Below are positions 8,134-61,670 of a stretch of DNA of 64,000 nt, one piece after another (position 1 is the first letter of the stretch; each line of letters starts with the position of its first letter). This DNA comes from an uncultured virus (IMG/VR IMGVR_UViG_3300022555_000016). Taxonomy: Duplodnaviria; Heunggongvirae; Uroviricota; Caudoviricetes. The stretch is taken from the IMG/VR virus record IMGVR_UViG_3300022555_000016. The stretch is one strand, 5' to 3'. The position numbers were made by a program, and so were the translations under genes. A model generated the notes under the pieces. That model saw only the letters and a list, made by a program, of their open reading frames with translations. It was not told the origin of the DNA and did not search any database.

Positions 8134-8162
8134 ATTTTACCAATTGCACCAACTGAGAACCA

Positions 8163-8191: not shown

Positions 8192-8210
8192 GCACATTTT
8201 TACTTAAGAA

Positions 8211-16446: not shown

Positions 16447-16483
16447 TTTTGTTAACCTTTTCTTATGGGTAATTATTAAACGT

Positions 16484-16512
16484 AGTGTAGCAAAATTAAA
16501 CTAGGAAGTCAA
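16484..16512 (-). promoter_or_regulatory. sigma70-type promoter
   Basis: TTGACT-17nt-TACACT. Confidence 0.65.
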
Positions 16513-17159
16513 GAGTTATTTTAGAGAATTTTAGTTGGTTGAGTTGGTTGAGTTGGTTGAACCGAAAAGTTCAGTTAAACCGGATAGTGTTGTATTTGAA
16601 AGGACCACCGCAAACGATACCATGGACTACTATCCCGTTGTAGTTGGTAGCGGTGAACTTGGTGTGGTACGGCTCATCAGAACAACCGAGGTAGCTATAA
16701 CCCTCGATGAGTATGTTACGGAAACCGGCGTCCGTTAGAGTCTTAGTAGCACTGGCATCATCCGAATGCATAAAGCAAAGTGCAAATAAAAAGAAAGCCG
16801 CAAAACCAACGCAAAGAACAATAATTGAGACGTTCTTTGCATTTTGTTCTGAATAGTTTGACATTATTCATCTTCCCAAGGTTCAATTACGGTTATTTTA
16901 GTGACTACTGGTTTAACTCCGGGATTAGGCCAGTCGTAGTCAAACTCTATTACCTGTTTAGCTGTAGCACAAGCGTCTGGTAGCATTGGATGAGTTACGT
17001 GTACAAAAGTCTGAGGTGGGTAGTAATCTTTCCCGGACTCTACTTTTAAAACGGTGAAACCTAAATCCTCTAATAGAGTACAGTCTTCATCTACATAATT
17101 TAGTGGGTAGGTACCATCATCCTCATCAAACTCGCTTTCGTACACAATTACTGCTTGTT

Positions 17160-21858: not shown

Positions 21859-22076
21859 GGTAAAGATACCTTTCTAGGAGGATAATAGGGTTTAAAAAGT
21901 GTAGAAAACTTTGGCACTAATAAACAAAAATTGCGAAGTTGGTTGAAACACTAATAACTGGACGTTAACCCTTGCTAAATCAAACGCAAACATCAAAAGT
22001 TGAAATTTCTCATTTTACGTTTTGGGAATAACTTAATTTTGTTTAGTGAGAGAAATTTAAAAATTTACTGAAGGGT

Positions 22077-22499
22077 TTGACTATGTTAATCAAGAATAAG
22101 CGTAAAGCATATCATACAGTTGAGCAAAGGGTCTACTCTTGCCAATATCATGTAGTTTTATGCTCAAAGTTTAAACGTAAAGTTTTTGAAGGTGATGTTA
22201 AGAAAGCCTTTGAAAAATGGCTAAAAGATCAACAAGAGAACATTGGCTATACCCTTGTAGACTGCGAGATGGTTGTAGAGAGTATACACCTTGTACTAGA
22301 CGTAGACCCTAAAGTCGGAATACATAACGTAGTGGTTAGGATCAAGTCAGGCTCCTCAAACTATATCCGAAACAAATTTAAGGACGTAAAGACTAGGTTT
22401 CCATCCCTATGGTCACGCTCGTATTTTATTGCGTCTGTTGGGTCTGTTGCTCTACTAAGTATCAAGTCCTACATCCAAGCTCAAACAAAGTCCCAGTGA
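22077..22499 (+). CDS. tnpA: IS200/IS605 TnpA (Y1 HUH transposase) homolog, HUH degenerate
   Basis: VYSCQYHVV.CSKFKRK, IKSGSS, LWSRSYFIASVG, YIQAQ; the canonical DHVH reads ESIH. Confidence 0.9.
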   Translation: MTMLIKNKRKAYHTVEQRVYSCQYHVVLCSKFKRKVFEGDVKKAFEKWLKDQQENIGYTLVDCEMVVESIHLVLDVDPKVGIHNVVVRIKSGSSNYIRNKFKDVKTRFPSLWSRSYFIASVGSVALLSIKSYIQAQTKSQ

Positions 22500-22523
22500 C
22501 TTTTCAAGAAGGAGTGAACTAAT

Positions 22524-24611
22524 ATGTTTATAAATAGCTTAGGTCGTGTTTGTATAACTCCTGAAGAAGCTCAGGAAAAGGAAAACAAACTAGTTGAGAT
22601 GATTGATAAGGGTATTACAGATATAGCGGAATTGGCAACTCATTGGAATTGTCACTATGTTTCTATGTTACATTTCCTTAGAAGTAGGACTATTACTAGA
22701 AACGGACAAGACATACGGTTAGATATAGTGCTTAAAAATATTAGAGATGTTAAAAAGAAGGAAGCACATGATAAGATGATGTCATCAGTCAAAGCTTTAA
22801 TTGATGAGGGAGTAACTTCTATAAACGACTTAGCTATTAAACTAGAAGTTGACTATAACTTCATGTACCGTTTTCTAAGAAATAATAAACTGCTAAACCG
22901 GGGAAATGACGCAGGTCCTGTTAACTTCTTAAGAAACCGGACAACTTTAGACAAGACTTATGTTCTAAAATTGATAAAATCTGGTGTGGATTCTATCAGA
23001 GAATTAGCTGAAGAGGCGGGTGTTAATTATGAGACTATGGTTGACTTTCTTGATGATAAAGGTATCTCTAGAGAGAAGTTACTAGGTAGACGAGAACAGA
23101 ATAAAAGGGACTACCGAGATAACGTAGACAAGATAATAGAATTACTATCTAAAGGCTATACTAAAAAGGCGGTTGAGAAAGAGCTTGGTATAGGACGTAA
23201 AGGGGTTGATGTTATTTTAGACAGCCACCCTGAACTAAAAGATAGCTTTGAGAAGTCTCAAACCTCATATAATCTAAGTCTATACACTAATAGCATTGCA
23301 CCTCTGCTAAAAGCGGGAAAGTCTACTATAGAAATTAGTGAATTACTAAATCTTAAAGTAAGAGCTGTGCGTAGGGCTATAAAGGAGTTTAAAGAGAGTA
23401 AAAAGCCTGTTAAAACTAGGTTACTCGACAATAAGACTATGTCGAGGTTTAATAAACTGTTGGTTAAGGGTAGGTCCCTAGATAAAATTGCTAGAATTTT
23501 AGACTTACCTGCATCTTCTATGTTAGGCTATATCTATAGTAACCCACAGCTAATGGACTCTTATAACATTGTGGAAGACAAGTTTGGTTTAGAAAAGCAA
23601 ATAGCAGAAAAACTGTTTGCTTTATTAAGGTTAGGTACTACAGTAAGAGATATAAAAGATAGACTGAATATAAGCCACGCCTTATACTTTAGACTCAGGA
23701 AACGTTACGCAGAGGATTACGAAAAGGCTTTTCTAAAAAGCCACAATTTCGTAAATAAAATAGATACTGACACCAGAATGCTTCGCATAAAAGCAAACTA
23801 TTCCGCTCTTAAAAGTCGCTGCAAGAAACGCGGAATTCCTTTTGCTATTGAAATTGACGATGTTGAATATCCAGAGTATTGTCCAGTTTTAAATATAAAA
23901 CTAAACTATTTTGGTAAACGTGGTGAAGGAGATATGAGAAATTATTTTTCTTATGACAAATTTTACCCACGTAAAGGTTACCTCGTAGGTTTAGTATTTT
24001 GTATGAGTCACCGAGCTAACACACTTAAAAATGACCTTAAATCTTCAAGAGAATTAGGGTCAATAATTTCAGCTCTTAAAGGTGACCCTAAGTTTAAAAC
24101 TAACTATATCACAAACGATGACTACCGTATGAGTATGTACCGTAGGGCCAAGCACAGAGCTAAAAAGAAGGGTATGCCGTTTACTATAACGCCAGAAGAC
24201 ATCAAACTTCCTGCGAGATGTGTCGTGCTAGGCATACGTCTATGCTACACTAACGATACTATGAGATACAATTCGCCTTCACTTGATAGAATTGACAATT
24301 CGAGGGGGTACGAGCCCTCGAACATCTGGGTCATATCAGCGCGTGCTAATGGGCTAAAACTTGACGCTACTGTTGAAGAGCTTAAACTGTTGTTTAAGTG
24401 GATGCGTAAAGTAGAAGACGTTATGCTTATTAAGACTTTTAGAGACCTTAAACTCAACAAAACTAAAGGTGTTCCTCTATCATCTAAACCTAGAATTTCT
24501 ACAACACCTGTTGTAAAAGATCATCTTACTAAGTCTAAGGTGAATACTCCAGAAGACATTAAGGCAGAGATTAGTAGGCAGAGCCTGCTGAAACAACGAT
24601 CTCTATTTTAG
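22524..24611 (+). CDS. multi-HTH protein with two C-terminal HNH-like (beta-beta-alpha) nuclease domains
   Basis: About 6-7 HTH-like repeats; RxKKxGxPF..CPVL..SYDK/SLDRIDNSRGYEPSNIWVISARAN domains. Confidence 0.75.
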   Translation: MFINSLGRVCITPEEAQEKENKLVEMIDKGITDIAELATHWNCHYVSMLHFLRSRTITRNGQDIRLDIVLKNIRDVKKKEAHDKMMSSVKALIDEGVTSINDLAIKLEVDYNFMYRFLRNNKLLNRGNDAGPVNFLRNRTTLDKTYVLKLIKSGVDSIRELAEEAGVNYETMVDFLDDKGISREKLLGRREQNKRDYRDNVDKIIELLSKGYTKKAVEKELGIGRKGVDVILDSHPELKDSFEKSQTSYNLSLYTNSIAPLLKAGKSTIEISELLNLKVRAVRRAIKEFKESKKPVKTRLLDNKTMSRFNKLLVKGRSLDKIARILDLPASSMLGYIYSNPQLMDSYNIVEDKFGLEKQIAEKLFALLRLGTTVRDIKDRLNISHALYFRLRKRYAEDYEKAFLKSHNFVNKIDTDTRMLRIKANYSALKSRCKKRGIPFAIEIDDVEYPEYCPVLNIKLNYFGKRGEGDMRNYFSYDKFYPRKGYLVGLVFCMSHRANTLKNDLKSSRELGSIISALKGDPKFKTNYITNDDYRMSMYRRAKHRAKKKGMPFTITPEDIKLPARCVVLGIRLCYTNDTMRYNSPSLDRIDNSRGYEPSNIWVISARANGLKLDATVEELKLLFKWMRKVEDVMLIKTFRDLKLNKTKGVPLSSKPRISTTPVVKDHLTKSKVNTPEDIKAEISRQSLLKQRSLF

Positions 24612-24633
24612 ACTGGATGGAATCCAAAGGTGT

Positions 24634-24894
24634 CTAACCCAACACCTTGTAAAACTTTCCCTTAAATGCTAAACCTCTAGAGTAGTCCAAAGGTGTTCCT
24701 AAAACAGGACAATGTGTTACACTAGCTGCCTTTTTAATGTCCGCTGCACAGAGCCCAAAGGGTACACCTTCTAGTTTAGCCTGCGCTTCAATGTCTGTTA
24801 ACATTCTAGCTATTTCGCTCTCGTTGAATACTACGTTCTCAGACTTTTCCAACTTGCTAGTCTTCAACTTCTTCTTAAGCTTGCTTTCACCCAT
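24634..24894 (-). CDS. small protein with truncated CPVLG nuclease-associated module
   Basis: AKLEGVPFGL..DI...THCPVLGTPLDY; lacks the DRID..N catalytic part. Confidence 0.55.
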   Translation of the reverse strand: MGESKLKKKLKTSKLEKSENVVFNESEIARMLTDIEAQAKLEGVPFGLCAADIKKAASVTHCPVLGTPLDYSRGLAFKGKFYKVLG

Positions 24895-24961
24895 GTTACC
24901 TACTCCAGTTGTTCACTACACCCAATGTACCAATACAACCAACCTCAAAAGGAATCTAATC

Positions 24962-25111
24962 ATGACTAGCCAAAAGACTCCAGTAACCACTGAGACTTTC
25001 AAGCAACCTACCAGCCGTGCAGAAATTCTTGCACTTACGGGTATGAAAGAGCTTCCTACTCACTGTCCAGTTTTGGGTATCAAGCTGAACTACTCTAACC
25101 TACGTGACTAA
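24962..25111 (+). CDS. 49-aa protein with truncated CPVLG module
   Basis: AAGGA RBS, then MTSQK...ELPTHCPVLGIKLNY; followed by a terminator. Confidence 0.55.
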   Translation: MTSQKTPVTTETFKQPTSRAEILALTGMKELPTHCPVLGIKLNYSNLRD

Positions 25112-25134
25112 CCACTAAAAGCTAACACCACCCC

Positions 25135-25170
25135 AAGGGAGTAATTGGCACATTAGCCAATTACTCCCTT
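25135..25170. terminator. bidirectional-type hairpin terminator
   Basis: AAGGGAGTAATTGGC/GCCAATTACTCCCTT followed by a T run. Confidence 0.65.
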
Positions 25171-25185
25171 TTCTATTCTACCTAG

Positions 25186-25214
25186 ATATTAACACACCAA
25201 TTCTAGAAAGTCAA
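25186..25214 (-). promoter_or_regulatory. sigma70-type promoter
   Basis: TTGACT-17nt-TAATAT. Confidence 0.55.
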
Positions 25215-26240: not shown

Positions 26241-26423
26241 TTATTTTATTACCGGCTTGCCACCGTTAGCCTTTTGTTCAGCTCTAACTTCCTTAAGTAT
26301 TGAGTTAAAAGCTTCTTCCTCAATTTTTCTAAACTCTTCCTGAGTGTCATGAAACCGTTGACACACCCTTTTAGCCTCCTCAAATGAGTAGACTTTCTCT
26401 TGCTTATCTCCGCTGCGAGCCAT
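26241..26423 (-). CDS. hypothetical protein, tandem module copy 3
   Basis: KVYSFEEAKRVCQRF..EEAF..IL.EVRA. Confidence 0.6.
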   Translation of the reverse strand: MARSGDKQEKVYSFEEAKRVCQRFHDTQEEFRKIEEEAFNSILKEVRAEQKANGGKPVIK

Positions 26424-26428
26424 GACTT

Positions 26429-26599
26429 TTATTCTTCTTTATTACACTTACGTCGTGCCCGCACTCTCAATAAAACTTCCTGAAAAGCCTCTTCTTCTGA
26501 CTTTCGAATCTCTTCCCGATGCTCTTGAAACCACTTACAAGCTTCCTTAGCCCCTTCAAGAGAGTATATTACCTCAGATGTATCATCCGAACGAACCAC
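26429..26599 (-). CDS. hypothetical 56-aa protein, tandem module copy 2 (not in ORF track)
   Basis: GTG start; MVRSDDTSEVIYSLEGAKEACKWFQEHREEIRKSEEEAFQEVLLRVRARRKCNKEE. Confidence 0.65.
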   Translation of the reverse strand: MVRSDDTSEVIYSLEGAKEACKWFQEHREEIRKSEEEAFQEVLLRVRARRKCNKEE

Positions 26600-26604
26600 G
26601 ACTC

Positions 26605-27309
26605 TTACTCTTCTTTATTAGACTTATCTCGCGCTCTAACTTCCATTAGAATAGAGTGGAGCATTTCTTCCTTAAGTTTTTCAAAATCTTCCCGTGTGTC
26701 ATCAAACCACTTACACACTTCAACTGCTTCCTTAAAGGAATAGATTTTACCTACTTCTTTGTCCACATTACGAGCCATAACCTTTACTCCAGGTTTAGCA
26801 AAATGATAAAACAACTCTTTAGAGTTAAAAGTTGACTTAACTGGAGAAAGCTTATATCCTATAGAGTCAAGAACTTCAAATAACTCAAGGTAACGAGTCT
26901 TTGTGACTTTTTCATCCGTTAATTTTAAAACGAGGTAATCTGGATTCCCTGACTTAATCAAAACTACAGGTACCAAAGAATTTATCAATTTACTGATTTT
27001 AGTACTATCATTTCTTAAATCATATTTATCTATTAAAGCTTGAGACTCGGAGGTTACACCATCATGAACTATGATGTATTTGCCACTAACATTATCATTG
27101 ATAAATAAGCCGTAACCTAACTCAACATAAGATAACTTATAACGTAAACTAAAACAAACGCTTAAGGTTGGAAAAGAATTCGCATATTCTGCTACTTTCT
27201 TAAGGTAAACTATTGCACCTCCTGATTCTCTAACCTCCCAATCAGCTTTATCATTAAACTTCCATTTGGACAAGTGTGCTTCAATGTACTGGTATAAGTC
27301 TTTAAACAT
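26605..27309 (-). CDS. hypothetical protein carrying tandem module copy 1 at the C-terminus
   Basis: C-terminal MARN..KIYSFKEAVEVCKWF..EVRARDKSNKEE. Confidence 0.6.
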   Translation of the reverse strand: MFKDLYQYIEAHLSKWKFNDKADWEVRESGGAIVYLKKVAEYANSFPTLSVCFSLRYKLSYVELGYGLFINDNVSGKYIIVHDGVTSESQALIDKYDLRNDSTKISKLINSLVPVVLIKSGNPDYLVLKLTDEKVTKTRYLELFEVLDSIGYKLSPVKSTFNSKELFYHFAKPGVKVMARNVDKEVGKIYSFKEAVEVCKWFDDTREDFEKLKEEMLHSILMEVRARDKSNKEE

Positions 27310-27324
27310 AGTTACTACTCCTTC

Positions 27325-27600
27325 CTAACAACCTAACCCTGCAACACAGGCACAAACATCAGAACTGGAAATTGGGCTAGAGCCTTTCCAAGTAGACTTC
27401 TCTACAACGTCTACGTTATTATCAGAGTTGTCAGGATCAATTGAAGCATTGTACATTACCCACTTATTACCAATAGCAATGTACGCTTGATCGCTATTCT
27501 TATCATAGTAGATGTCATAGTCTTTAAAAGTAGTAGGTTGCTTATCTAACACGCCTAAAAGATTTAATTCAGTCATTGATTTTACCTCCCTACGAACCAC
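27325..27600 (-). CDS. small protein with C-terminal CACVAGLGC motif (paralog A)
   Basis: Paralog of 28036..28323; start may be the later Met (MTELN). Confidence 0.6.
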   Translation of the reverse strand: MVRREVKSMTELNLLGVLDKQPTTFKDYDIYYDKNSDQAYIAIGNKWVMYNASIDPDNSDNNVDVVEKSTWKGSSPISSSDVCACVAGLGC

Positions 27601-28035
27601 TAAAACTTTAGAATCTCTAGTGGTTCGTCATATAAAACTAAACTTACTCTACAAGAACCAGTGTACCAGCATCACCAAGAACTGATTCTGCCCAAGCATA
27701 CAACTTTTCCCGAAGGTCAGGATCAATAATATCCAGAAACACGTAGTCACAAGGGTTTTCGGGTAACTCTCCAATGTTTTCGGCCGTAAACGAACCCCAA
27801 ACTATTAAATCTCCTTCTTTAACGAGATCGTTGTACGCTTTAGCAAAATGTGTGATTAACTCTTTAGTTGTTGATTCCTCGCTGAGAAAACGAAGCCTAA
27901 GCTTGGAATCAAACAAAGTTAAACCTAGAGCACTAGCCATTGCTAATTTTACTTTACCATGACCAACTTCAGCAACAATTTTAACTGTACGCATAACTTC
28001 TCTCCACAGACTAGATTAAAAATTACGAACCCACC

Positions 28036-28323
28036 CTAACAACCTACTCCTGCAACACAGGCACAAACGTCGGAACTATTTGAACCACTGTCTCCGACCC
28101 AACTACTAACTGTAGCGTCTGTACCACGTTGAACGCTAGAGGCAAGTGGAGTGTATGACAGGTTGTACATTACCCACTTACCGTCAATAGCAATGTACCC
28201 TTGACCCGTATTCTTATCATTATAGAAATCATAGTCATCAAACTTAGTAGGTTGCTGGTCTAGTTCACCTAAATAGTTTAGCGCATTCATAACAACACCC
28301 TTTCCTAGATTAAAAACTACCAA
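28036..28323 (-). CDS. small protein with C-terminal CACVAGVGC motif (paralog B)
   Basis: LG.LD.QPT.F.DYD.Y.DKN..Q.YIAI..KWVMYN.S shared with paralog A. Confidence 0.6.
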   Translation of the reverse strand: MVVFNLGKGVVMNALNYLGELDQQPTKFDDYDFYNDKNTGQGYIAIDGKWVMYNLSYTPLASSVQRGTDATVSSWVGDSGSNSSDVCACVAGVGC

Positions 28324-31100: not shown

Positions 31101-31916
31101 CTACTTATCCTTGGTTAAGACGACCGGATCAGCACCATCAAAGATGACTTCGACCCGGTTGGTGACGGTAGCGAAGGAAGGCATATCCAACCTAACAATC
31201 TCCCACCGTTCAATTGGACCAACAGGACGGTGTTTCTCTGGTATTTTACTCAGAACAGTAGCGTCCAACTCTTTAACTACTCGGCGCTTTTGCACGAAAG
31301 TTCCACGTTTAAAGAATGCTGGGTAGTTGTTCCAGTTGACACCTTTCTCAAAAAGCATCTCTTGGATGACACGGCAGTTCTTCTTGAACAACTGCTTAGA
31401 CGAATAGTAGTGCCGACCAGCCATCTCTATTGAGTTGCGGGTAGCGTCCCGTTCCCGCCACAGGATCATGTTTGCAGTTTCAATCAACGTCGGTAGGTTG
31501 ATTATTCTAGCGTCAAAGTGTGGCAGTAGTTTAGCTACCCTATCCGGCCAGTGCTTAACGGCCAAAGAAGTAAACTTTGCCGTGGTCATGGCTGCTAGGA
31601 CTGAGTGCAACTTGCTAAGCTTACCGTTGAAGAACGTTTGACTGGTAGGGTCAGGCTGGTACCACACTAGAGAGATTTCGTCAGACTGGGTGTAGCCCAG
31701 ATTAGCGTTAGCCTCAGCAACCAACCACTCAGTTGTTTGAATCATACACTCTGACAGGCGAAGATCGTAAGGCCGTTCCATTCCATGAGTAAACTTAGAG
31801 AAAGAACGACCGTCAACCCTAGCATAAATAGGGATCAAAGGAAGAAGGTGTCGGTCAGTTTCCCGCCGCTCATAGTCCTTCATCCTATCGCCAAAGTCAT
31901 CACGACGGCTAGACAT
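31101..31916 (-). CDS. thg1: tRNA(His) guanylyltransferase Thg1-like 3'-5' polymerase
   Basis: GDRMKDYE, RVDGRSFSKFT, YTQSDEISL, FDAR, WRERDATRNSI, FKRG. Confidence 0.95.
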   Translation of the reverse strand: MSSRRDDFGDRMKDYERRETDRHLLPLIPIYARVDGRSFSKFTHGMERPYDLRLSECMIQTTEWLVAEANANLGYTQSDEISLVWYQPDPTSQTFFNGKLSKLHSVLAAMTTAKFTSLAVKHWPDRVAKLLPHFDARIINLPTLIETANMILWRERDATRNSIEMAGRHYYSSKQLFKKNCRVIQEMLFEKGVNWNNYPAFFKRGTFVQKRRVVKELDATVLSKIPEKHRPVGPIERWEIVRLDMPSFATVTNRVEVIFDGADPVVLTKDK

Positions 31917-33866: not shown

Positions 33867-33888
33867 AGATATTACCTACTGTTAAAAC

Positions 33889-33917
33889 ATAGTACCACAA
33901 CGGTACAAACAAGTCAA
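33889..33917 (-). promoter_or_regulatory. sigma70-type promoter
   Basis: TTGACT-17nt-TACTAT. Confidence 0.7.
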
Positions 33918-35110
33918 GCGGAATCTTTTTTAAAAGATTCCGCTTTTTCTAATCCTTCAATCTTTCAGGCGTCCGGTTTTGTCTAGCCATAAACCACGCT
34001 CTGCCATGAACCCAAGCCAGTTGTAGCAACGTTGGTTTTGTAACCACTTGCGTGGGTAGGTAGGGAGTTTGCCACAATCAACTCCGTTACCTTCTTCCAA
34101 TTGTCTTTTGAAAGCGGTACGTCCTTGCCTGAACCAAATAACATATTTGGACACGGTAATAAAGTTAGTCCCATCTTTTTCGTCTATTAAAGGCATAAGG
34201 TTAGTCCTTTACTCAGAGTCATGACAGAGCCACCTTACACCGTAAAGATATAAGGGTAGAGAAACTTCGCTGACTTGTGTCTGATCAAACTTGCCAGTAG
34301 CTTTGATATAGTTGGCTACTGTGAGGGCTTTATCAACGTCTCTCAATCTAGCGGAATAGATACTCTTTTGACGAGTCTTTCTAGCTAGAAAACTCTCAAG
34401 AGCTGATTCTTTGGTTGGACAGGCATGTTTCTTGTTGTGGCTGTTTAGGACTAAAACCTCGTCTGATCCTGAAAAATCGCCAAACCACCTACGTAGTTTT
34501 ACTCCTTTTGGAGTTAACTTAGTTACCCTAAACTCCAAAAGATTAACTTTAAGAGTGCTTGATCCTACGATATTATCAAACTCATCAACCGGCGGTGCGT
34601 AGGATTGGTCCTCGTACCTGTACCAGATGTCCCCAACTTGTGGTGTAAACATGATTATCTACCTCAACCGAGAAAGAAGCTTGTTATATCGACGATCAAA
34701 CAAGTCAATCTTTAACTTGGAGTGGTTACTGCACGACAAGTCCAAGGCGTCATCTCGAAAACCTAGACACTGCAAAGACATAGCTTGAAAATGTTTGATC
34801 TCAAGGTTAACTTTTTGAATCTCGTTGAACGTATCCATGGCGACTCCTAGTTAGGACGAAGGTCAATAAGCCTAATGATGCTATGGCTCCCAAACAAACG
34901 TTGTGCAAACACTTCTACCGCTTCAGCAACCTCCCTACAAGCAAAACCTGTAGCTTTACTGAAATCATCACTGTTGTTTGAAAAAGGCACCCATTCATCG
35001 GTAGTTACATTGTACAAATAGGACTTATGGAACTCTAAAGTTTCCAACTCTTTTAACAAGACCTCCTTAGACTCAAAAAGCTTAACCAAAGTTTCAGCAC
35101 TAACATCGGC

Positions 35111-35293
35111 GCTACACAGATAGAACATATATGACACACCTCTCGCTAAAGCTGAGAGGTTTCTTCCTGTGTGCTCTTGGGTAGCTAAGCCAAGATAACA
35201 GGCAGCCTCCTACTTTCAAGGGAATCTAGACCCTCTCTTAGGAGTTGAGGCGTTCCCGGTGTCCTCCGGTACACTGTCCGTTTCAGTGGACGA
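35111..35293 (-). ncRNA. free-standing IS605/TnpB right-end omega-RNA-like element with putative guide
   Basis: TACCGG-AGGACA-CCGGGAAC, GCCTGT...ACAGGAA, CCTCTC-AGCTTTAGC-GAGAGG-TGTGTCA; GACAC/GTGTC pseudoknot. Confidence 0.7.
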
Positions 35294-35299
35294 TAAAGC

Positions 35300-35328
35300 A
35301 TCGTAACACAAAAGAATCAGGAAGTCAA
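35300..35328 (-). promoter_or_regulatory. sigma70-type promoter driving the omega-RNA-like element
   Basis: TTGACT-17nt-TACGAT. Confidence 0.7.
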
Positions 35329-35397
35329 GGAAACTTTTAGTACAGGTAAGATTCTATTGAACTAGGATTCTAGAAGTAGTTGGCTAAAATGTTAGAA

Positions 35398-35560
35398 TGG
35401 CGGGAATACCCGAAGGTGTTAGGTTTTTAGTCCTTATATCTCCGCCCTAGTTGTGCGTAGCACAACGTCGAAGAAGGGCTGGAGCTTTACGGACGATACA
35501 GTAAACTCCTTACAGGGTTAACTTTGAAGTTCTAAAACTGTTCCTGGCGGGAACAAGCCC
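35398..35560 (-). ncRNA. candidate pseudoknotted structured RNA
   Basis: GGAGTTTAC/GTAAAGCTCC stem whose loop TGTATCGTCC pairs with GGAGATATA; GCCCT/AGGGC and GTTGTGC/GCACAAC stems; ACC-TTCG-GGT; no ORF. Confidence 0.5.
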
Positions 35561-38500
35561 ATGATTTTAATCCTTATCTGATAACACAGGGATCGTGTCT
35601 TTGCCTAAAGCTGCTAGTTGTTGCCGAGTGTAAACCAGTTCTTTCAACCAAGCAGCCAATTGAAAATGTGCAGCAGAGCACGCGCCTGTATAAGTAGTAC
35701 TTACCTTCAGCGCATGAATTATGGCTTCATTTAACTCTTTGGAGTCATCAAACATTGATATTATCCTTACCTTTAGTTACCTTATTACTGCGAGGCCCGA
35801 AGTTCATGCAGAAATGAAACTCGTCAGTAGTGGACTTACAGTCACAGTCACGTTTATCAAACCGACAACTGCTAACGTAGTAGGCATTTTTTTGAATCTC
35901 AATGTTCGTTAAGCTCCGATTGCTAATGTCCCAAAAGACACAATTATGACAGCAATCTTCTGACGATAGACCGTAACCACGTTTACCCAATAAATGTCTA
36001 CCCCAAGAACTCATTGTAGGTTCTAAACGAGGCTTAAAATTAACGATGTTGTCAGACATTCTTCTTCCTTTCTTAATAGCGGTCTAAACATCTCGCTTTA
36101 GGTTCTGTACTGGAACAATTATTATTTTACCTTCGAGATTATCTTCAAACCATTTAATGGTATCTTTGTCAGACCACGTTACCCAATCAGGAGAATAAAC
36201 AGAATGAAGGGCAGCGTTTCCTCTGTGTACCCCTAGAAGGGTAGCTCTAATGTTCAAGGGTTTACCTAGATAAAACCCCTCATGGACAACAGCAGAATTT
36301 ACCCCTAGAAACGAGGAAATACACAAGCCAGCCGCAGACTCTACAGAAGTAACGAAATCCCTGGAAAACTCATAACAGTCCTCAATAGGGTTTTGACTTA
36401 TTTTGTCTATCAACCTAGCTAACGTGTTGAGATGATTTTGCCAAGACTTATGAGGCATCCCAGAAATAATCCAAGCAGTGTCTAATTGACGCAAAGAAGA
36501 TTTTGAGCTTTCTCGTTCTTTAGGTGTAGTCCTGGAAAAATCGATGTTGAAAGACTCTTTAACATTCTGAGCAGAGGCTATTAACTTATCCATACCGTCT
36601 AAAACGCGTTTTGGAAAAGCTAAACAAACTTCCTGTAGCACCTTACTCGCATTACTTTTGTGCAAATAGAAATCGGCCATTAGTTTGTTCCTTTGTCAAA
36701 AACCTACAAATCCCAACCGTGCCTATCAGCAAGGTCACAACTTAAATTTATTGCTCTATCCTCGGCTTCTTGCTCTGTTTCCGCTTCAATTTCATAAATA
36801 GGTACACCATCCCCATGTTCAAGTAGAGCAGCTTCTTTAGTTTGAAAAATTTCAGTCCTAGACCAAGTTAAAACCGCAAAAAATGTTGCCATTACTGTTC
36901 TTTCTTAGCTGCGGTCTCTAAAACCGCTAGACAACCGTGAGACAAGTACGGTTTGCCTTGATAATGGACGGTAAAAGGGTTGTCAACTACTACGTTGCAA
37001 TTTGGACACCAAGCTTTACCAGCCGCCAGGGCATCTTCTCTTTGCTTGTTTCGCCTCAACATCTCCCAATGTTCCGCCCAGCCGTAATGACTATGAGAAG
37101 TTGATAGATTACATAAATAACACATTGTTTACCTCTGTAGTTAACTTGGCAGCTTGTTCCGCAACGCTGATAAGGCAGCTGGAATGTCGTCAGGGTGGAT
37201 AATTCCTGTTTTAACGTTAAACTCTGACTCATCAATGATAAAAATATCACCACGCTTAGCTACTTCTGTAGCCACCCACTTGAATCCAGTTAGAGTTTCT
37301 AGTAGTCTCAACTGCATCTTTTGGAAAACTTCAAAAGTTAATGGTAGTTCTTCTTTATCAGGAACAGTTGAACTTTGAGTTAAACAAGCAGTAAGAGTCA
37401 GTTCAGACAACTTGTTGTTTAGCTCTTCTGACAGTTTGATTGGCTCTGCGTATTTGGCGTATTTGGTATATTTGAGGGTAGGAATCATGGTTAACAACCC
37501 TAATTTTTAATAAGAATCAAACGTCCGTTTATGTTAGCCATAGCTTCTCTCAAAAGACAAGCTACCCTATAGGCAGTACCACAGTCTGAAACGTTAATTA
37601 TTACAGTGTCAGCAACTACATCAAGTACCTTATTACTTAATAATCCTTCAATGTCATCTATTATTTTAAGGTTGCTAGGATGGGAACCCAGTACTAAATG
37701 ATCAATATCGGTAATAAAAGTAACTTGTTTACCAGCACGAGTTACTGCACAGCCTATAGCAAGCTCTATTGAGAGTCCAAATAAATGAGTTACTTGATTT
37801 TCCGCAGAAATGTTAATTACGTGCATAACAAGTCTCTCCTATTTTAATGCTTCAAAATGATTGAACAAGAGTTTAATCTAATCGCGTTGCTGGACAAGTA
37901 GTAACTATTCAGGCAATCTAAGTAGACTCGTTCCGGCGAACTGGGGAAATAATACAAGTTAGCCACGTAGCCGAGGGTTAAAGCTAGAACAACCGAGCAA
38001 AAACAGATAGTTATGGCTTTGTTACGGGGCATGGAAGAAACTCCTGGTATGGTAGTCAGGGGAGAGTTGGTTGTTCTCCCCTGACTATAAAACCTTAGCC
38101 TAATTCGTTAATACTTGTTTTAACAGCCTTAAAAGACGCGGTGTCTTGACTGCTTGTTAGCGTAACATCAGACTAAATTGGAAATCCAACCTTCATAGTT
38201 ATGGAAGGGTCTGGAATATCCGCCTTATCGGCTAAAAGTTTAACAATTACCAGGCGACCATTAGCAGTAAGTAGGGCGCGTTTAGCCATGTCTGCTATTT
38301 CGGCAACTAGCTTCGAGTCTTCTACATCAACAACAACTAGGTTTAGAGTGTAACTCCTAATACCAGTCCTAATGCTATCAGTCTTAACAACTCTAAGATT
38401 GTTAGCAGAATGACTATCAAGGTAATGGTCTGACACCAATACAACTTGATGATCTGGATTAGCCGTAGCATAACCCATCGCCATAGCAACTGCTAATTGC

Positions 38501-38576
38501 GCTTTGCCACTTTGACTACTTCCGCTTAGTTCTAAAACTTCAACCATTGACTAGACTCCTTCTTGAGATTATTAAC

Positions 38577-38605
38577 ATGTTACAACAATCGAACGATGAA
38601 GTCAA
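38577..38605 (-). promoter_or_regulatory. sigma70-type promoter
   Basis: TTGACT-17nt-TAACAT. Confidence 0.65.
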
Positions 38606-40911
38606 GGAAATTTTTACCAAAAAGCCCAAGGTGTAGTTTGATTTACACCTTGGGCTTTTCAGTCTATTTAGATAGGTTAACTGGCGTCTTTAATGGACTT
38701 GATGTAAGTGTTGAACCAGTCAGTAGGAGACATCCACTTAACACCACCAGTACCGTCAGCTACAACAATTGAGCCTTCAGCAACAGGATTTTCTTTTTTG
38801 AACACTTCACCAATAATTCCAAAGGTACCGTAGGAACGAAGCTGAGAAGCATTAACTGCCATACCGGTGTTATAGTTACTAGCCATGGTAGCGTCCTTTA
38901 AAAGGAGATAGTTACAGAAAGGTCAAATGACCAAAACAATTAGTTAGGTTAACTAAGTGCTTAGTCCAGCACCCAAGGATGTCGTTTGTTGAATTAAAAC
39001 CCAACGACCGTTGTCAAACACGACGTAGCAGTTAATTAACGCTTTACCTTCGTAGCGCAATGTCCTTAAATCACCTTGCTCACCGCTAGAAGGCGTGCGG
39101 TCTAGTTCATAGTAGCCTTTGTAGACAACTTGTCCTTCAACCGGTTCCTTGGACTGACTAGAAGATTCTTCAGTAGTTTTGTTTGAACGGGCTTGGTTTG
39201 ACAAACCGACAATATCGCCGCTCCACTTACCACACCAGTCTACTGCTTTAGTTGTCGGCCAAGTTCCTTGAGGACAGGGTGACTTTTGCCTACACAACCC
39301 ATTATCATTATAATTAAAGGCTTCCCAATAGTCGCAAGTTGAGCATCTCATTTTGTGCTTGATCTTGTTAGACATGTCGTGCTCCACGAGTTTGCATTTC
39401 AGTTAGAGTTATTTCCATGGTTTTCAACCGATCTATTAAAGTTGATTCGTCTAGGGACAACTTTGCACTTAGCTGAGGATCAGCATGTTGAACTGTTACC
39501 TTAGCAGCACCTAGAGATTCAAGGTGCTTGGCTAGAAGGACAATTAGAGAAGTCTTACCAGAGTGTTCTGGTGCTGAAATTTGAATTGTTACACGAGCAT
39601 TAGGCATCTAAGGCTGTCCTTTTATAGGTCTATAAAGTTGAGTGTTAGGTGGAGGCGGGCGTTCATAACGTTTCTCGTCTGGACACAAGGTTTCTAGGTT
39701 ATGGAACCCTGCGACTACGTGGACACAGAGAGAATCAACCTTCCAGAACAACAACTTGCTTTGGTGGATTAAGCACCTGTGGTTCTGTCTGTTGAAGTGT
39801 ATGCAGTTGTAGTTTATTCCCACTTGGGACTCCTTACGTACAAAACTTCATAAGTTGCCGGTGTCTACACAAACCGTAATAGAAACCTGAATCCTTATGA
39901 CTTTCTCTCATCTTAGCATAGGGCATAGCGCGGAAGGTCACTTTAGACGGCTGCTTAAGTCGGGTTCTAAAGTTAGACAACCATGGTGTGTACAGTCTAT
40001 GATAGAGGTTCTCTGGTGGTCGGCGTCGTTCAAAGGCGTATTTAGACATTACTTATTACTCCATAGCGACCAGGGCCAAATAGACATTACCACAAAGAGA
40101 AAAGTCAACTCTATAGTACTAAACTGATAATTATGGTACCACAAGGCTAGGACTATAGAGCTTACACCGATACCTATTAGGTTTACTTTGGAGAACATTG
40201 GCTTCCTTTGGTTGGAAGAGAAGGTGGTAGATTTTACTGTCTACCCCCTTCTCTTTAGGTTACAAGGTCAATGACTCAGATTGCTGGTAGATAGCATTGG
40301 CGACAAGCTGTGTTGTTGCTATTACCGTAGGTGGGGCGTTATGGTCAACTAACAACAGGTTCACGGCTAACTAGTTCCTCTTTATGAAGAGACAGGTTGA
40401 CTATCTCAAAACAGGCAAATTGAGAGTTTTCAAAAGGCCACCCTGAAGACAGGTTCCAACCGTATAGTGGATTTACTGACATGCTATTGCTCCTTTGGAT
40501 AGCCGTTCAGATTTAGACTCTTGAATCATCTCTTCCAATCTAGAAGTTGTATCATTTAGGTCCTTGGTTATAGCTTTCAGTCTAGTTGAGTAATTGTTGA
40601 AAGCGTTAATTAAACCCTTAAGGGCGTCAAGCTGTTTGTCAAAGGAGGACATGACTGGTTAATCCTAATCCATAGCTGTTTCTATGATGATAGTTAAAGA
40701 TTACTTAATTAGGAGACAACTCCAAACTTGACAATCTCATGGTCTTCGGGATTGAGGTTGTGGTGGATTAGTTCTAGAGTTAGAGCGTTGACGGAGTTTG
40801 AAAAATGCGCGTGGTGAGCGTTAGAGGTGTAGCTGTAGCTAGCGTTACCTGTGAACCATTCACCGTGCTTGTTCCGGGCAGCATAGATTATTTGGTTATT
40901 AGAGTTGGACA

Positions 40912-43449: not shown

Positions 43450-43560
43450 TTTAAGCTCCCTTTAGCCTAGTTTTAGGCTTTGTTGACGATACACGAAAAA
43501 GTTAGAAACTTTCTATCAAACTAACTTGTTTCAAAGTTAACTTGAGTATTTAGTGTAGGT

Positions 43561-43589
43561 ATACTAGCACAGGAAAATCTGGAAGTCAA
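43561..43589 (-). promoter_or_regulatory. sigma70-type promoter
   Basis: TTGACT-17nt-TAGTAT. Confidence 0.65.
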
Positions 43590-45529
43590 GAAAAATTTTA
43601 GCACTATTAGTGTCACTAGCCTTCACAACTTTGAAGTCCTCTATGTTCATCACGAAACTCCCAGCACCTGTCTAATCTCGGATTTAGCTGCTTGTTTACC
43701 GTTCTCAAAAGTTCGCTGCATAGCCCTGGCTACCGACTCGGCCAAGTGAACATTAGGCAAAGTTACATAGCTAGTCTCTCCACGCCAAGGGTAACAAACT
43801 TCAAACTCAGTCGCCTCGGGATCCTGTCTATCACAAATTTCTCTAGACGAACTGTTGGCAATAGACTTGTATGCCACAACTTTAATATTTGACATTATGC
43901 AGCACTCCTAGCAACAGCATCCAATCATCCAACCACCACACCGGCCCAAGAGGTCAAACGGCTTAACAAGTACTCGTACAAAACCCAAAACGGGTTGCTA
44001 TCCAGCTGCTCCTGTTCGCGCTGTTTCTCGAAAACTCGATTGACCTCGATAGCAATAGCCTTAGCTGATTCAGTACAACCATTAGCATCCAAACCAAAAG
44101 ACGGCAGGTACAGTAGTTCGGGGTTCTCGTCTGAGAGTTCTCTTAGTTCGAGGTTGACTCGAGATAGCAAAACGTCCGAATCAACCTCCTCTCCAGATGC
44201 CAGAAATAAAGGATAACCCATGATTCCACCCTATCAATAAACAATATCTGAATAATTAACTATTAGTTGTCCAAGGTCATCTATCTTCAAACGACAACCC
44301 TGTAGTTCAACTTTGTCGTCACTAATTAGTGAGAAACTACCGTCAAAATTCCGTTTGCCTAAGTTAAAAGTGATCAACCTGTTATGTCCGTCCAAGTTCA
44401 ATATTACACCTAACGGGTGCTCTAACGGAGCATAGTCGTAGCTCTTAGGAACAGAAACAGGCTGCCACTTGTTAACTCTAAACGAATCGGACACGCCAAA
44501 CTCCACAACTGGTTTCTACAGCAACTACGTTAGCCAACTAACAACAAAAATAACGACCAAATATAATTGCACAGCTTACCAAAGCCGTATATCCCTCCTA
44601 AAACCAATAGGAACAAACCTAACAAGTAAAATACCGTTGACAAGTCAGTAGGTGGTTGCTTTTCTGGATCAAGAAAATCAAACTCGTGCAGCATTACAAT
44701 CTACTCCTTACTCCAGGGTACGTTCAACAACGTAGAGATGAAAACCTTATTGGCCCTTTTAACCAATTGAATTAACAGCCTAAGTACACCAATTACTGTG
44801 TTAACCGCTAAAAACACGGCAACCAAGGTGATTATTCCTAAGTTGCAAACTACAACTCTCAACCTAATCACCGCGCTAATTTTCTTAGGCTTAAGTGCTG
44901 ACATTAACTTTTATGCCAAATAGAGTGCAAGAATGCTGCAAATGTTAAAACGGCTAGAGTTACTCCGACTCCTACCAAGATTACTATCCCGACAATATGG
45001 AACAACCCCATTACCAGCAACCACAACGGAATCGAGATAGGAAACGTTAAAACAAACAGTTTCCTATAGAACATATGCCAAGACATTGGGTTTCTCAACA
45101 ATGTGAACCAATTAACAGCTGTGTCAACAAACTGCACCATTTGACAAACTCCTTTAACTACTATAGGGCTAAAGAATAAACACAGATTCATGACCAAACC
45201 GTGGCTCAACTTCGACAATGGATTGTATATGGACATCTGTGTTGTCTGTGTCAGACACAACCTTTAGCCTAAAAGTCTTGTAGGAATTATTTGACCAGAC
45301 ACTGTCCAGCAGTAGTTGTTCCACTGGCTTGTCTCTATAGGCAAAACTTACGCGGAACTTCTTAGCTACTGTTAAAGACTCTAGCACGGGAAATCCTCTA
45401 AGTCAAGGACAATTTTACAAGACTTTTACTCACGCTTTTTGACTATGATTAGGACTAACCGTTTTTAAAATTCCTTATTCTTGTCGGCAATAGTTCCTAG
45501 AATCAAAATTAAGATTCCTCAAAAAAGAG

Positions 45530-52353: not shown

Positions 52354-53053
52354 GCCACAAACTCCTTAAGTTATTAAAAGCCAACGCTAGTTACCCAAAC
52401 AAGTCAAACTACTTTAACTTCCGGCCAGCCCAAGTGCTGTGCTACAACCTGTGCTTCTTGAAACATCTCCTCCCTGTATCGGAACAATGAATCACTATCT
52501 TTACTTACCCAGCCACGAGCAGCTATGTTTAAGGCTGAGTAGTTAGCCTCCAGGAGCTTAGAATCGTCTACCAACTTTGACCAATTAGACTCAAAGTTAA
52601 AATTACCACTACGACAATTCAAGACAGTCTTAGTCCCTACATCAAAAATAGCTTCAGCCCTAATTTTGATAGATAAAGACAAGGAAGGTTGGTCAGAGAC
52701 AGGGCTGATTATCGGGTCTACTATGACACCGTTACCGTTTAGAGCAACGACAACCAAACGGTTACTGTCTAGTAATGACGGTTTACAGGTCAAAATTGTC
52801 GTTCCTATCACATTAGAAGTCAGCAAAGTTGCTGCGGAAGCAACTGTACCTATTAGTACTGAACTTCGAGTAAGATTCATTATAGCTATCTTTCTAGAGT
52901 TGATTGTAGCAAATAGTCGCAGGTCTTACGTAAGGTTGTTAAGCTATTATAAGTCCTGTCTTTAGGCCACAAATTACTGGAGACCTGGGATGTACTACTA
53001 GACACCCTTTACCTCGAGTGCATGCACCGGGCTATTAGTTAACCTTAAACAGT

Positions 53054-54787
53054 TCAACCGACGTAGTGATTGCCTCTAATTAACCGTGAGTCCTTCTGAA
53101 TCTGAATCTTGAAAGGTGTTGTTAGTACCTTCTTGACCCAGTCTTGGTCAACCGTAGGCAATCCCATACGAGTCTTGAACTTTCTAAGGACGTTTACTGA
53201 GGATTGAACGTCAGAGTGAACATGAATCCCTTTAGCGGTGATATACAAGCCTCGTCGGACCCGTGTACCACTGTAATGAGGACTGGGAGCACCCTTAACA
53301 TAGCATGGAGGGAGATAGTCACCGTCCATAGCAGACCCTTTACTAGTGTGTGATTCATTCTGTAAGTGGACTGTAATACCTACTGCTACGCACTTGTAGG
53401 TTAACATTTCCACGAACCGATTGAAGGGGAGCCTAGTAAAGTTCTTCATACCCTTAGCAAACTGTTTCCAGTCTAGATTCCTACCGATAACTAGGATTAC
53501 GACACCCTTCTCCACGAGCAGCTTCACTAGCGTGCTGGAAACGTTGTGGAGGTAGTGGTCCAGTCTATTTCTAAGCTTATTGTAAGCGGCTTGAATCCTC
53601 TTTGAAGAGTTCTGTGGGACTTTAGAAGTTAGAATCTGACTCAACTCCTGATCGTACTCAGGAGGCTCGGGGTACAATGAATCGTGAGTAGCAAAAGCTT
53701 GCTGAACCATCAAACCTAGCATAAGGTAGTTAAACGGGTTGGACTCAGGGTCTTTCAACTCCCTAAGACGTTTCCTCTTCAACTCTAGCTCTTCTTTAGC
53801 TTTAGTACGTTCGTCTATTAACTGACGTTCCCTAGCCGGTTTAGACCAGTAGAGGTCCCGTTTAAGCTCTTCTATCTGGTAGTAGGACCAAAGTAATAGA
53901 GACTTCAGAATCCAACCGTTAAAGGCTATAGGCTTTGGATTACCTTCGATTACCCCAGCGGCTGTAACGTTTAACCCTAGGTCAAAGCTTGCTATGGCTT
54001 GTAGTTCTTCCTGCTTAGCAGTCCAGTTACCTGTAATCTCTTCGTTGTAGACTACTTCTACGTTGTAACCACCTACTATTGGTATGTAGCGTACTTCCGT
54101 GATTCCAACGTCTCTTAGGACAGGTTTACCCCTGGAATCCTTCTTTATAGCTTGTTTACCGTTAGCGTCGGTAACAACTTGAGGTTGCATGTGGAGGGTG
54201 AAGGGTATTTCCTGTTTAAACTCAGGATTCTTAGGGCAAAGGGTGATGATTCCCTTGGGAGCAATAGACTCTGATAACCTAGCGCCTTTGACCTGTTTCC
54301 TATCAGAATCAATGATCTGACCACCGGACATGGTCTGGTAGGTAAATTTAACAGGCTTACGACTGTCAGTCCTACGGATGTACTTATCACCCTTGAATCC
54401 AGGCGGTTGAGGGCAAGCCTTGTACTTCTTAGGAAACTGTTTCTGGAGTTCCTTGCTTTTAGTCCACTCCCAGAAGTCAAACCAAGCTGCTTCGAAGGAC
54501 TTCCAGTCGTCATGGAGCATCTTAACGGTAGCTTGAGCTACTTTAGCAGGTAACCGTTGGTACTCTAGAGTCGGTTTTAACAGCTTAACTAGCTCTGGTA
54601 GACTAGGAATCCTACGCCGTTGGAAGCCTGGTTTCTTATAGTTGTCTTGGTTGTAATTCCAGATTTCTAGTAGAAGGTGGAGACCTACATGATAGAGTTT
54701 GGAGGACAAAAAGCAAGTACGATCAATACTCCTATCCCAAGGGTGTTTTGGACCTACAAACTGTTTTTGAGTCCTAGTTTCTAACAT
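53054..54787 (-). CDS. tnpB: TnpB-family RNA-guided nuclease, enlarged (577 aa), zinc-finger-less clade
   Basis: RuvC-I FDLGLN; RLDHYLHNVS; LVIGRNLDWKQ; NF..LPF..F..MLTYKC..VGI; NESHTSK; SGTRVRRGLY; RuvC-III HSDVQSSVNVLRK. Confidence 0.9.
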   Translation of the reverse strand: MLETRTQKQFVGPKHPWDRSIDRTCFLSSKLYHVGLHLLLEIWNYNQDNYKKPGFQRRRIPSLPELVKLLKPTLEYQRLPAKVAQATVKMLHDDWKSFEAAWFDFWEWTKSKELQKQFPKKYKACPQPPGFKGDKYIRRTDSRKPVKFTYQTMSGGQIIDSDRKQVKGARLSESIAPKGIITLCPKNPEFKQEIPFTLHMQPQVVTDANGKQAIKKDSRGKPVLRDVGITEVRYIPIVGGYNVEVVYNEEITGNWTAKQEELQAIASFDLGLNVTAAGVIEGNPKPIAFNGWILKSLLLWSYYQIEELKRDLYWSKPARERQLIDERTKAKEELELKRKRLRELKDPESNPFNYLMLGLMVQQAFATHDSLYPEPPEYDQELSQILTSKVPQNSSKRIQAAYNKLRNRLDHYLHNVSSTLVKLLVEKGVVILVIGRNLDWKQFAKGMKNFTRLPFNRFVEMLTYKCVAVGITVHLQNESHTSKGSAMDGDYLPPCYVKGAPSPHYSGTRVRRGLYITAKGIHVHSDVQSSVNVLRKFKTRMGLPTVDQDWVKKVLTTPFKIQIQKDSRLIRGNHYVG

Positions 54788-56835: not shown

Positions 56836-57078
56836 TTAACACTGACTGAGTTGTCTTTTTTCAAGAGGTAGAGAACGGACAAAACGCTTGATATCTGAGC
56901 GCCAGTTCTGGATTCCCAACCGATCTGACGGAGTTCCTGCTAGGGGAAACTTACGACCGGCGACAATTAAGTGAGTATGCTTTCCTCCATCTTTTAGATC
57001 GTAAGGAATATTGTGCTGAGACAATATCTTCTCAGCTTCACGAACTCTTTCCCGTTCGTGCTTATTAAGAACAATCAT
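56836..57078 (-). CDS. HicA-like dsRBD-fold small protein
   Basis: GGKHTHL....FPLAGTPSDR....N.RSDIKR. Confidence 0.55.
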   Translation of the reverse strand: MIVLNKHERERVREAEKILSQHNIPYDLKDGGKHTHLIVAGRKFPLAGTPSDRLGIQNWRSDIKRFVRSLPLEKRQLSQC

Positions 57079-58296: not shown

Positions 58297-58539
58297 AGTG
58301 AACAACCCTTTCTCAAGGGAGGTCAAGCTGATTCCTGACCTACCGACTATGACCCTACACCCTTCCGAATCCTTTGTCAAGAAAAATCTAAAATTTTTGT
58401 TAATAAGAAAATTTGTCAAGCAAAATCAAAGGTTTGTCTGTCTATGAGAGTTTGATGAATCAAAAAACCCAGTAAACTCTAGTTAAAGAGTTTACTGGGC
58501 TTAAGAGCTACTAAACTACTTAGACAAGCAGACAGCGGT

Positions 58540-60814: not shown

Positions 60815-60842
60815 GTGTAAATCCTTTATACTTAAGGTTAAA

Positions 60843-61651: not shown

Positions 61652-61670
61652 AACTAAAATCCTTCTAGGT

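Follow-up and report, generated by a model that had tools for sequence, protein, structure and literature searches.

A predicted TnpB-type omega-RNA scaffold without an adjoining tnpB gene, present in several diverged copies in lake phage DNA

Omega-RNAs that stand apart from a nuclease gene have been described before. In the summary of Altae-Tran et al. (2021) given in PMC10691335, there is a report of stand-alone omega-RNAs working in trans together with compatible effectors, while what they do biologically is stated to be unknown; gene-less PATE-like elements which encode omega-RNAs are noted by Meers et al. (PMC10055086), where RF03065 and RF02998 are given as the Rfam models of TnpB omega-RNAs. 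In the ISDra2 omega-RNA, according to the cryo-EM (cryo-electron microscopy) description of the RNA in PMC10097598, the loop of an early hairpin forms a pseudoknot with nucleotides -5 to -3, and the last stem before the guide carries a UUUA tetraloop. Exchange of tnpB between cyanophage and host is also described, in a 2026 preprint (10.64898/2026.02.14.705889) in which the terms 'omega' and 'guide RNA' do not occur. Here we analyse an element of this kind in an uncultured Caudoviricetes virus, IMGVR_UViG_3300022555_000016. The window, i.e. the whole stretch of 64,000 nucleotides (nt) that was analysed, lies within the virus's own contig of 129,496 nt and contains on its minus strand, at 35131-35296, an element whose identification as a TnpB-type omega-RNA (right-end) scaffold without an adjoining tnpB is well supported by sequence comparison. 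It is a clear example of the stand-alone omega-RNAs already known and not a new kind of system.

A first-pass annotation, made from the letters of the sequence, had described here an RNA of ~160 nt with named stem-loops, an extra CTCCTA/TAGGAG domain, a terminal hairpin and a TGTGTCA end, and all of these are in place. The predicted parts are, from 5' to 3':

35131-35296, minus strand: predicted omega-RNA scaffold without tnpB, ~165 nt with five hairpins, identified from the R3 covariance match, the two-copy alignment, the consensus fold and the family covariation (all below)
35291-35276, minus strand: hairpin H1, 4 base pairs
35269-35256, minus strand: hairpin H2, CCGG-AGGACA-CCGG, with the loop AGGACA
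35263-35259, minus strand: GACAC of the H2 loop, proposed as the 5' strand of a pseudoknot and complementary to 35137-35133
35244-35207, minus strand: hairpin H3, CUCCUA...UAGGAG, with an inner hairpin
35202-35166, minus strand: hairpin H4, CCUGU...ACAGG, with an inner CUUGG/CCAAG
35160-35138, minus strand: hairpin H5, CCUCUC-A-GC-UUUA-GC-GAGAGG, with a UUUA loop
35138-35131, minus strand: tail U-GUGUC-AU with a sharp 3' end; the ATG of the next open reading frame (ORF) follows three bases later
35137-35133, minus strand: 3' strand of the proposed pseudoknot, GUGUC, two nt before the scaffold end
35130-35111, minus strand: flank, putative guide ATATGTTCTATCTGTGTAGC, overlapping the ATG of the next ORF (35128)

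The GACAC/GTGTC pairing that had been proposed has the necessary complementarity. In a second full copy of the element, L002 (described below), the two strands read GACAU and AUGUC, so that both sides are altered, and G(G/A)CA faces an invariant UGUC in all 17 of the 17 aligned family members; the covarying loop base of the phage pair could instead pair inside H2. Compared by topology, not by sequence, the element is arranged like the ISDra2 omega-RNA as described in that account of the structure, with a scaffold of about 165 nt against 116 nt there. Folded as a single sequence, it surpasses its shuffles by only a modest margin, whichever strand is taken (z -2.0 and -2.3), and several of its stems hold G-U pairs in the transcribed sense, which are C-A mismatches on the opposite strand. 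The putative guide does overlap the start of the next gene, as had been noted, be it ATG 35128 or GTG 35137, and the putative guides of the window copy and of L002 have no second match in the window beyond chance, that of the window copy at up to 3 mismatches. A small protein encoded in the element was considered and rejected, as the copies differ by 1- and 2-nt indels together with compensatory stem changes.

The family to which the element belongs was established with reciprocal covariance models, which bear out the TnpB-type omega-RNA identity by linking the phage copies to omega-RNAs that adjoin tnpB. Model R1 was derived from the two phage copies and, apart from these, has no match in the window and L002, the flank of the window's tnpB included. 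In three cyanobacterial genomes that had been reached via other loci it gave 22 matches at E up to 1, located in two of the three, and under stricter filters it matched in 4 of 151 genomes of the same class; these matches are weak but consistent. All of the cellular matches carry the 3' module GAAGAAUCC..CUUUAG..GGAGUGUCAA and then diverge at once. They have in common AAGAAUCC, the hairpin with the CUUUAG loop and the tail AGUGUCAA, and in many of them the AACGC motif is present too, as is the H2 hairpin, whose loop is then GGGCA or GGACA. Three of 13 R1 loci (L087, L097 and L098) have a tnpB directly upstream, with the end of its ORF overlapping the match, while four lie at contig edges and six have at least 1.5 kb of upstream sequence with no tnpB there. 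In the best defined case, L087 from Scytonema sp. HK-05, the match overlaps the 3' end of an intact gene for a TnpB of 407 amino acids (aa), recognised by Pfam OrfB_IS605 (2.4e-19), TNB (6.2e-22) and NCBIfam guided_TnpB (236 bits). In its own genome (G001) there are 51 matches to the L087 element, full-length and partial, and those which reach the query end stop at the GTGTCAA boundary (query about 1406-1427). An alignment of six copies of the cellular family gave no clean left-end boundary. At L099-L104 in the same genome a conserved small reverse-strand reading frame apparently lies just upstream of tnpB, as we read the alignment.

In the opposite direction, model R3 was built from seven cyanobacterial omega-RNA regions adjoining tnpB, with no phage sequence, and was run with filters off over 72,024 bases. 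The window element ranks first (27.3 bits, E 1.2e-4) and the L002 copy second (22.3 bits, E 1.8e-3), well ahead of a third match at 10.8 bits. The R3 alignment places the 5' part of the element in homology with the last codons of tnpB (the region coding for NAAINIL), as in canonical omega-RNAs. The earlier statement that no tnpB remnant lies upstream needs one correction: tblastn finds none, but the 5' part of the element is itself homologous to the end of tnpB, and a displaced leader of the element lies at 35520-35491 (below). When 17 family members are aligned to R3, 94.9% of the cells are paired, compared to 67.3% in shuffled alignments and 39–47% with slid partners, and two-sided changes occur in 24 of 30 pairs, with the observed values reached in 0 of 500 shuffles; since this alignment was fitted to the model, it leans towards structure. 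The 3' boundary is sharp throughout, as cellular copies diverge after GUGUCAA and phage copies after GUCAU.

The search with omega-RNA models that had been suggested as a check gave a divided answer, with R3 recovering the element and the Rfam models failing to do so: nothing in Rfam reaches the gathering threshold on the window and nothing relevant appears at E up to 10 on 34600-36000, which includes RF03065 and RF02998, models of the same kind of RNA. The family members adjoining tnpB have no Rfam match either (E up to 1), so the family is not catalogued in Rfam 15 and the blank result on the window is not evidence against membership.

TnpB proteins of the L087 type are also found in cultured cyanophages, at 71% identity in Nodularia phages, 55% in Microcystis MaMV phages and 52% in Anabaena phage A-1(L). 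R3 finds six places in three cultured cyanophage records, five of them overlapping the 3' end of an annotated transposase. The relatives that adjoin tnpB include L087 of Scytonema sp. HK-05, gp155 of Nodularia phage vB_NspS-kac68v161, 58R of Microcystis phage MaMV-CH01 and A1L_70 of Anabaena phage A-1(L). They share with the element the H2 hairpin with its G(G/A)CA loop, AACGC, AAGAA(U/A)CC, the last hairpin with a CUUUAG loop and the GUGUCA tail, and the Microcystis phage RNA has in addition the inner H3 motif AGAUUCCC in common with it. The differences are that the relatives overlap an intact tnpB 3' end and terminate in UCAA, whereas the copies described here lack tnpB, terminate in UCAU and have a central domain (H3/H4) of their own. 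One further R3 match, a weak one (L113; 22.4 bits, E 0.0035) at 70455-70560 on the minus strand of Nodularia phage NC_048757.1, has no transposase gene nearby and may be a stand-alone omega-RNA remnant in a cultured cyanophage.

How the element is maintained can be read from its other copies. The stretch is present in DNA runs of freshwater and lake metagenomes from three studies, and we mapped the contigs of four public runs onto 34200-36700. In the four runs the assemblies break at 35156, 35208, 35241 and 35296, and again at 35436-35505, with the summed depth in the broken parts at 3–4 times that of the flanks (e.g. 86–106 versus 26 in run X1), and several diverged versions of 35156-35296, at depths near those of the phage contigs, are found in all four of the four. 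Altogether at least four diverged copies of the element, with compensatory changes in the stems, exist in the same lake samples, which argues against an inert scar. A scan of the metagenome contigs with an invariant 24-mer gave two loci, the window's contig and L002, which lies on a contig of 41,892 nt from the same metagenome. The L002 copy is 86% identical to the window element over 143 nt, the two can be aligned over the whole element, and divergence starts right after GUCAU. In their consensus fold of 36 pairs there are three compensatory changes, one one-sided change (C-G to U-G) and no broken pair, and at H1 the two copies differ in sequence and yet form a hairpin at the same place. In two further copies the inner H3 hairpin is swapped for a different self-complementary hairpin, and the outer H3 stem occurs across copies in three mutually complementary versions, according to our reading of the variant tables and loose contig ends; by the same reading of the variant tables, further copies have CCUCC...GGAGG instead of CCUCUC...GAGAGG in the last hairpin.

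In L002 the 5' end of the element abuts the stop codon of the upstream gene, with no promoter, and the module ends 27 nt before the ATG of the next gene, whose AGGAG lies outside the module. The two full copies have the same 5' truncation point, which suggests that they diverged after the gene was lost and that it was the gene-less module itself that was duplicated. The copies together suggest, as far as sequence comparison can tell, that a module devoid of tnpB has been copied and kept under selection for its RNA structure. The contigs of the window and L002 represent either one large genome with paralogues or two related co-abundant phages. Separately, the Bro-N genes of L002 (146-1201) and of the window (57229-58419) are 82–85% identical in DNA over parts of their length. 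Beyond these samples, 28-mer and 24-mer patterns of the element had no match in a viral contig collection, a 22-mer had none in a genome contig collection, and blastn of the element region against INPHARED phages gave no match; three loci picked up in the viral contig collection by a 17-mer pattern were dismissed as chance matches when examined with R1. Neither the neighbouring proteins nor the window's TnpB have relatives in the viral contig collection.

Set against the described systems, the element is like stand-alone omega-RNAs and PATE-like derivatives, as portrayed in the passages cited above, in having a scaffold, a right-end boundary and its own flanking guide, in being multi-copy and in lacking an adjoining effector or transposase. 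Unlike PATEs, its copies have no left end, their 5' end aligns with tnpB 3' coding sequence and their upstream contexts differ. Unlike the stand-alone omega-RNAs reported in those passages, it is set in a phage, neither the window nor L002 shows a compatible effector for it, and an inserted segment has joined one of the copies to a phage promoter.

This promoter was described at first as the RNA's own. It is indeed present directly before the element on the minus strand, in the form TTGACT-17-TACGAT as had been proposed, and a consensus scan lists it too (9 of 12 matches, with TG preceding the -10). The repeats of the window show that it belongs to a family, D1, and the following features are relevant here:

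35328-35300, minus strand: predicted sigma-70-type promoter TTGACT-17-TACGAT, from the sequence (TTGACT 35328-35323, 17-nt spacer, TACGAT 35305-35300)
35299-35339, minus strand: copy of the 41-nt promoter family D1 at the element, from repeat analysis (7 copies in the window)
8162-8202, 16483-16523, 33888-33928, 35299-35339, 38576-38616, 43560-43600 and 56798-56838, minus strand: D1 promoter-like repeats (TAAAA.TTTCCTTGACTT...TA...T)
35520-35491, minus strand: original 5' leader, TAAGGAGTTTACTGTATCGTCC, now displaced from the element body; the L002 copy has the homologous sequence at its 5' end
35296-35490, minus strand: 195-nt segment between two TATCGTCC repeats, holding a hairpin module (about 35436-35487) and the promoter
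34847-35128, minus strand: downstream ORF of 93 aa (ATG 35128) or 96 aa (GTG 35137), with no Pfam family

Elsewhere in the window, by our reading, four of the six other D1 promoters stand roughly 20–40 nt before a gene, one about 110 nt before, and one directly precedes a tRNA gene (8063-8133). The D1 repeats are probably the standard early or middle promoter of the phage. A blastn comparison of the element with the rest of the window matched only these other promoters, and nothing else of the element is repeated within the window. All of the genes flanking the element are on the minus strand, and those upstream have no Pfam family. The predicted promoter at 35328-35300 is a general phage promoter, which also serves the downstream genes.

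Its arrival can be reconstructed from the L002 copy, whose first 20 nt (AAGGAGTTTAACGTAT...) align with window positions 35520-35491, some 200 nt farther upstream than the body of the element. Two copies of the 8-mer TATCGTCC, at 35491-35498 and 35288-35295, enclose 195 nt in which the promoter lies. In the run contigs the depth is 3–4 times that of the flanks, with contig breaks, at 35436-35543, and another copy joins 35296 straight to 35446, with the promoter part missing. In our interpretation the 195-nt segment split an ancestral module and brought the window copy its promoter, leaving the element body a few bases past a phage transcription start. To speak of the element's own promoter therefore overstates the case, since the promoter is a general one which also drives downstream genes and was acquired with this segment; it is absent from L002. 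The hairpin module at 35436-35505 (CUCC-A-GCCC ... GUUGUGCUACGCACAAC ... GGGC-GGAG) is itself multi-copy in the lake samples, and at one other locus two hairpins of this type apparently stand in tandem. On the plus strand, 35138-35160 looks like a terminator because H5 is read there in reverse complement and the AAGAAA linker passes for a T-rich tail; this site is not the end of any plus-strand gene.

The window encodes one TnpB, for which the element had been proposed as a possible guide:

53054-54787, minus strand: TnpB of 577 aa, the only one in the window, with long insertions and the RuvC residues D269/E478/D526 intact (Pfam, NCBIfam and alignment)
52913-53007, minus strand: omega-RNA signature of this resident TnpB, GGGUG[UCUAGUAGUA]CAUCC, further hairpins and a tail ending in ACUAU, directly 3' of tnpB

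In a search of 5.8 billion proteins the full-length matches of this protein are only a near-identical counterpart (99%) and one relative at 63%, and a PDB sequence search gave none. Its cellular relatives were collected at 80 loci of Ktedonobacteria and cyanobacteria, where the omega-RNA consists of a hairpin GGGUG[UAGUAGU]CACCC, further hairpins and a tail ending in AACUAU. The pattern of this clade signature matches once in the window, at 52913-53007, with 0.04 matches expected by chance, and this region aligns with the omega-RNA ends of six cellular relatives; the signature is shifted so as to lie wholly downstream of the tnpB stop codon. The hairpin and tail of the clade are not in the element. 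Model R2, built for the omega-RNA of the clade, gives no significant match on the window, neither at the element nor at the tnpB flank, and R1 in turn finds nothing at the 80 loci, nor do nhmmer and blastn. The 577-aa TnpB thus appears, from these alignments and patterns, to have its own cis guide RNA, of a family other than that of the element.

What, then, could the element be? That it is a trans-acting guide for the 577-aa TnpB is the least attractive answer and extremely improbable, even though the two sit in the same genome, the RuvC triad is intact and stand-alone omega-RNAs working in trans with compatible effectors are reported in the summary cited above (PMC10691335). The pairing proposed at first is not supported: this protein belongs to another clade and an omega-RNA signature of its own directly follows its gene on the 3' side, which makes it an unlikely partner. 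Loop and tail are UAGU and ACUAU in the scaffold of the clade but GACA and GUGUCAU in the element, the two differing throughout, R1 is null both at the tnpB flank and at the 80 loci of the relatives, and the TnpB of the cognate family has no tblastn match to the 577-aa protein. Very unlikely, too, is a leader acting in cis, in which H5 would hide the Shine-Dalgarno-like sequence of the downstream ORF and control translation or RNA stability independently of TnpB. H5 does contain, as its 3' arm, the only such sequence of this ORF, GAGAGG (35144-35139), which precedes the ATG (35128) by 10 nt, and the leader of ~165 nt is longer than at other D1 promoters. Against this, the relation to the start codon is not conserved, as the position of the L002 module and of the AGGAG behind it shows, and the features that are conserved are those of the TnpB family. 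The element could also be a decoy which soaks up or reprograms a host TnpB for the benefit of the phage. The TnpBs of this family are abundant in cyanobacteria, with the 51 matches in one genome as an example, the window copy is behind a phage promoter and several copies are kept, all of which would suit a decoy; the sequence offers no means of telling a decoy from a guide, and we know of no anti-phage role of TnpB, although no search aimed at one was made. We regard it as highly improbable.

The alternative that deserves the most discussion is an inert scar, in which a TnpB gene was deleted and its right end was left in a 5' untranslated region with no RNA-guided function. We consider it unlikely, mainly because the two full copies were truncated at the same 5' point, so that their divergence came after the gene loss; a scar also fits poorly with stems kept by compensatory changes across at least four copies and with 0 of 36 stem pairs broken between the two full ones. 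Several observations are nevertheless what a scar would predict: there is no cognate tnpB in 72 kb and no left end, the 15 cellular members that were aligned all have another terminal base, the element sits inside operons with no terminator after it, and tnpB-less copies are common in cyanobacteria too (6 of the 13 matched loci).

Instead, we find it probable that the element is a 5'-truncated, nuclease-less omega-RNA module from a family of IS200/IS605-type TnpB elements that cyanobacteria and cyanophages commonly carry, for which we infer a working as a guide in trans. It appears to retain all that a TnpB guide RNA needs, i.e. the hairpin of the proposed pseudoknot, the central hairpins, the last hairpin with its UUUA loop and the sharp right-end boundary, past which the differing flank of each copy would be the guide. 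Transcription would start a few bases before the first hairpin and continue into the downstream genes. A cognate TnpB supplied in trans, from the cyanobacterial host or from another part of the phage genome, could then bind and trim the transcript, and the complex would be aimed at DNA containing the flank (ATATGTTCTATCTGTG...) beside the target motif, that is, at phage alleles without the insertion, in the manner of the known 'homing' role.

Several points weigh against this interpretation. No terminator follows the element, so that a discrete RNA would have to arise by processing. With the L087 TnpB as tblastn query at E up to 10, the window and L002 yielded no tnpB of the cognate family (best E 1.5 in 72 kb). 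Lacking a left end, the copies have no access to the usual TnpA route of movement. The scores to the cellular family are modest (22–27 bits) and come mainly from H2 and the 3' module, the central domain being different. The phage copies end in UCAU as opposed to UCAA in 15 of the 15 cellular and 3 of the 3 cyanophage members aligned, which might weaken recognition. Finally, elements that were still active could have acquired the compensatory changes before the truncation, but the 5' truncation point common to both full copies speaks against this.

A more far-reaching version of the trans-guide interpretation, which we consider quite unlikely, is that the phage keeps a small number of dispersed gene-less omega-RNA genes, one with a promoter of its own and the rest transcribed by read-through in operons, whose guides are the starts of phage genes and which are loaded by the abundant TnpBs of the host cyanobacterium. 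The structural selection on modules without tnpB, taken together with their mismatch to the phage's own TnpB, is compatible with such loading. If true, a host transposon nuclease would become a weapon that cuts co-infecting relatives without the insertions (gene drive, superinfection exclusion), or else would be neutralised. The locus provides in any event a well-documented phage case of several stand-alone TnpB guide-RNA modules with stems kept by compensatory change, predicted to be of a family unlike that of the phage's own TnpB, and it raises the question of whether phages borrow host TnpB nucleases via guide RNAs of their own. It also defines an omega-RNA family widespread in cyanobacteria and cyanophages, models of which would improve the annotation of 'structured intergenic RNAs' in cyanophage genomes.

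Other parts of the window contain mobile-element genes and repeats. On the opposite strand, 22000-25200 encodes a Y1 (IS200-like) transposase (22077-22499), a 695-aa multi-helix-turn-helix protein with Cbp1-like repeats (22524-24611) and an ORF of 124 aa, an island that resembles an IS200-type insertion carrying unusual cargo. We considered whether the 695-aa ORF beside the transposase might be a hidden TnpB and rejected this, as its product is a multi-helix-turn-helix protein. At 59801-62084 a second, diverged Y1 transposase (61671-62084) is followed by two helix-turn-helix-endonuclease VII proteins (60843-61544 and 59801-60814). The regions 26266-26718 and 27312-28290 contain a 101-nt unit in three copies at a spacing of 176 nt, together with repeats of 55 nt and 128 nt that occur in pairs about 711–714 nt apart, within or between small ORFs. 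Lastly, 31101-31916, 9702-10235 and 3580-4038 encode homologues of Thg1 (tRNA-His guanylyltransferase), SspB and cyclophilin, respectively, and 10677-11477 contains a weak Tad2-like (Thoeris anti-defence) domain.

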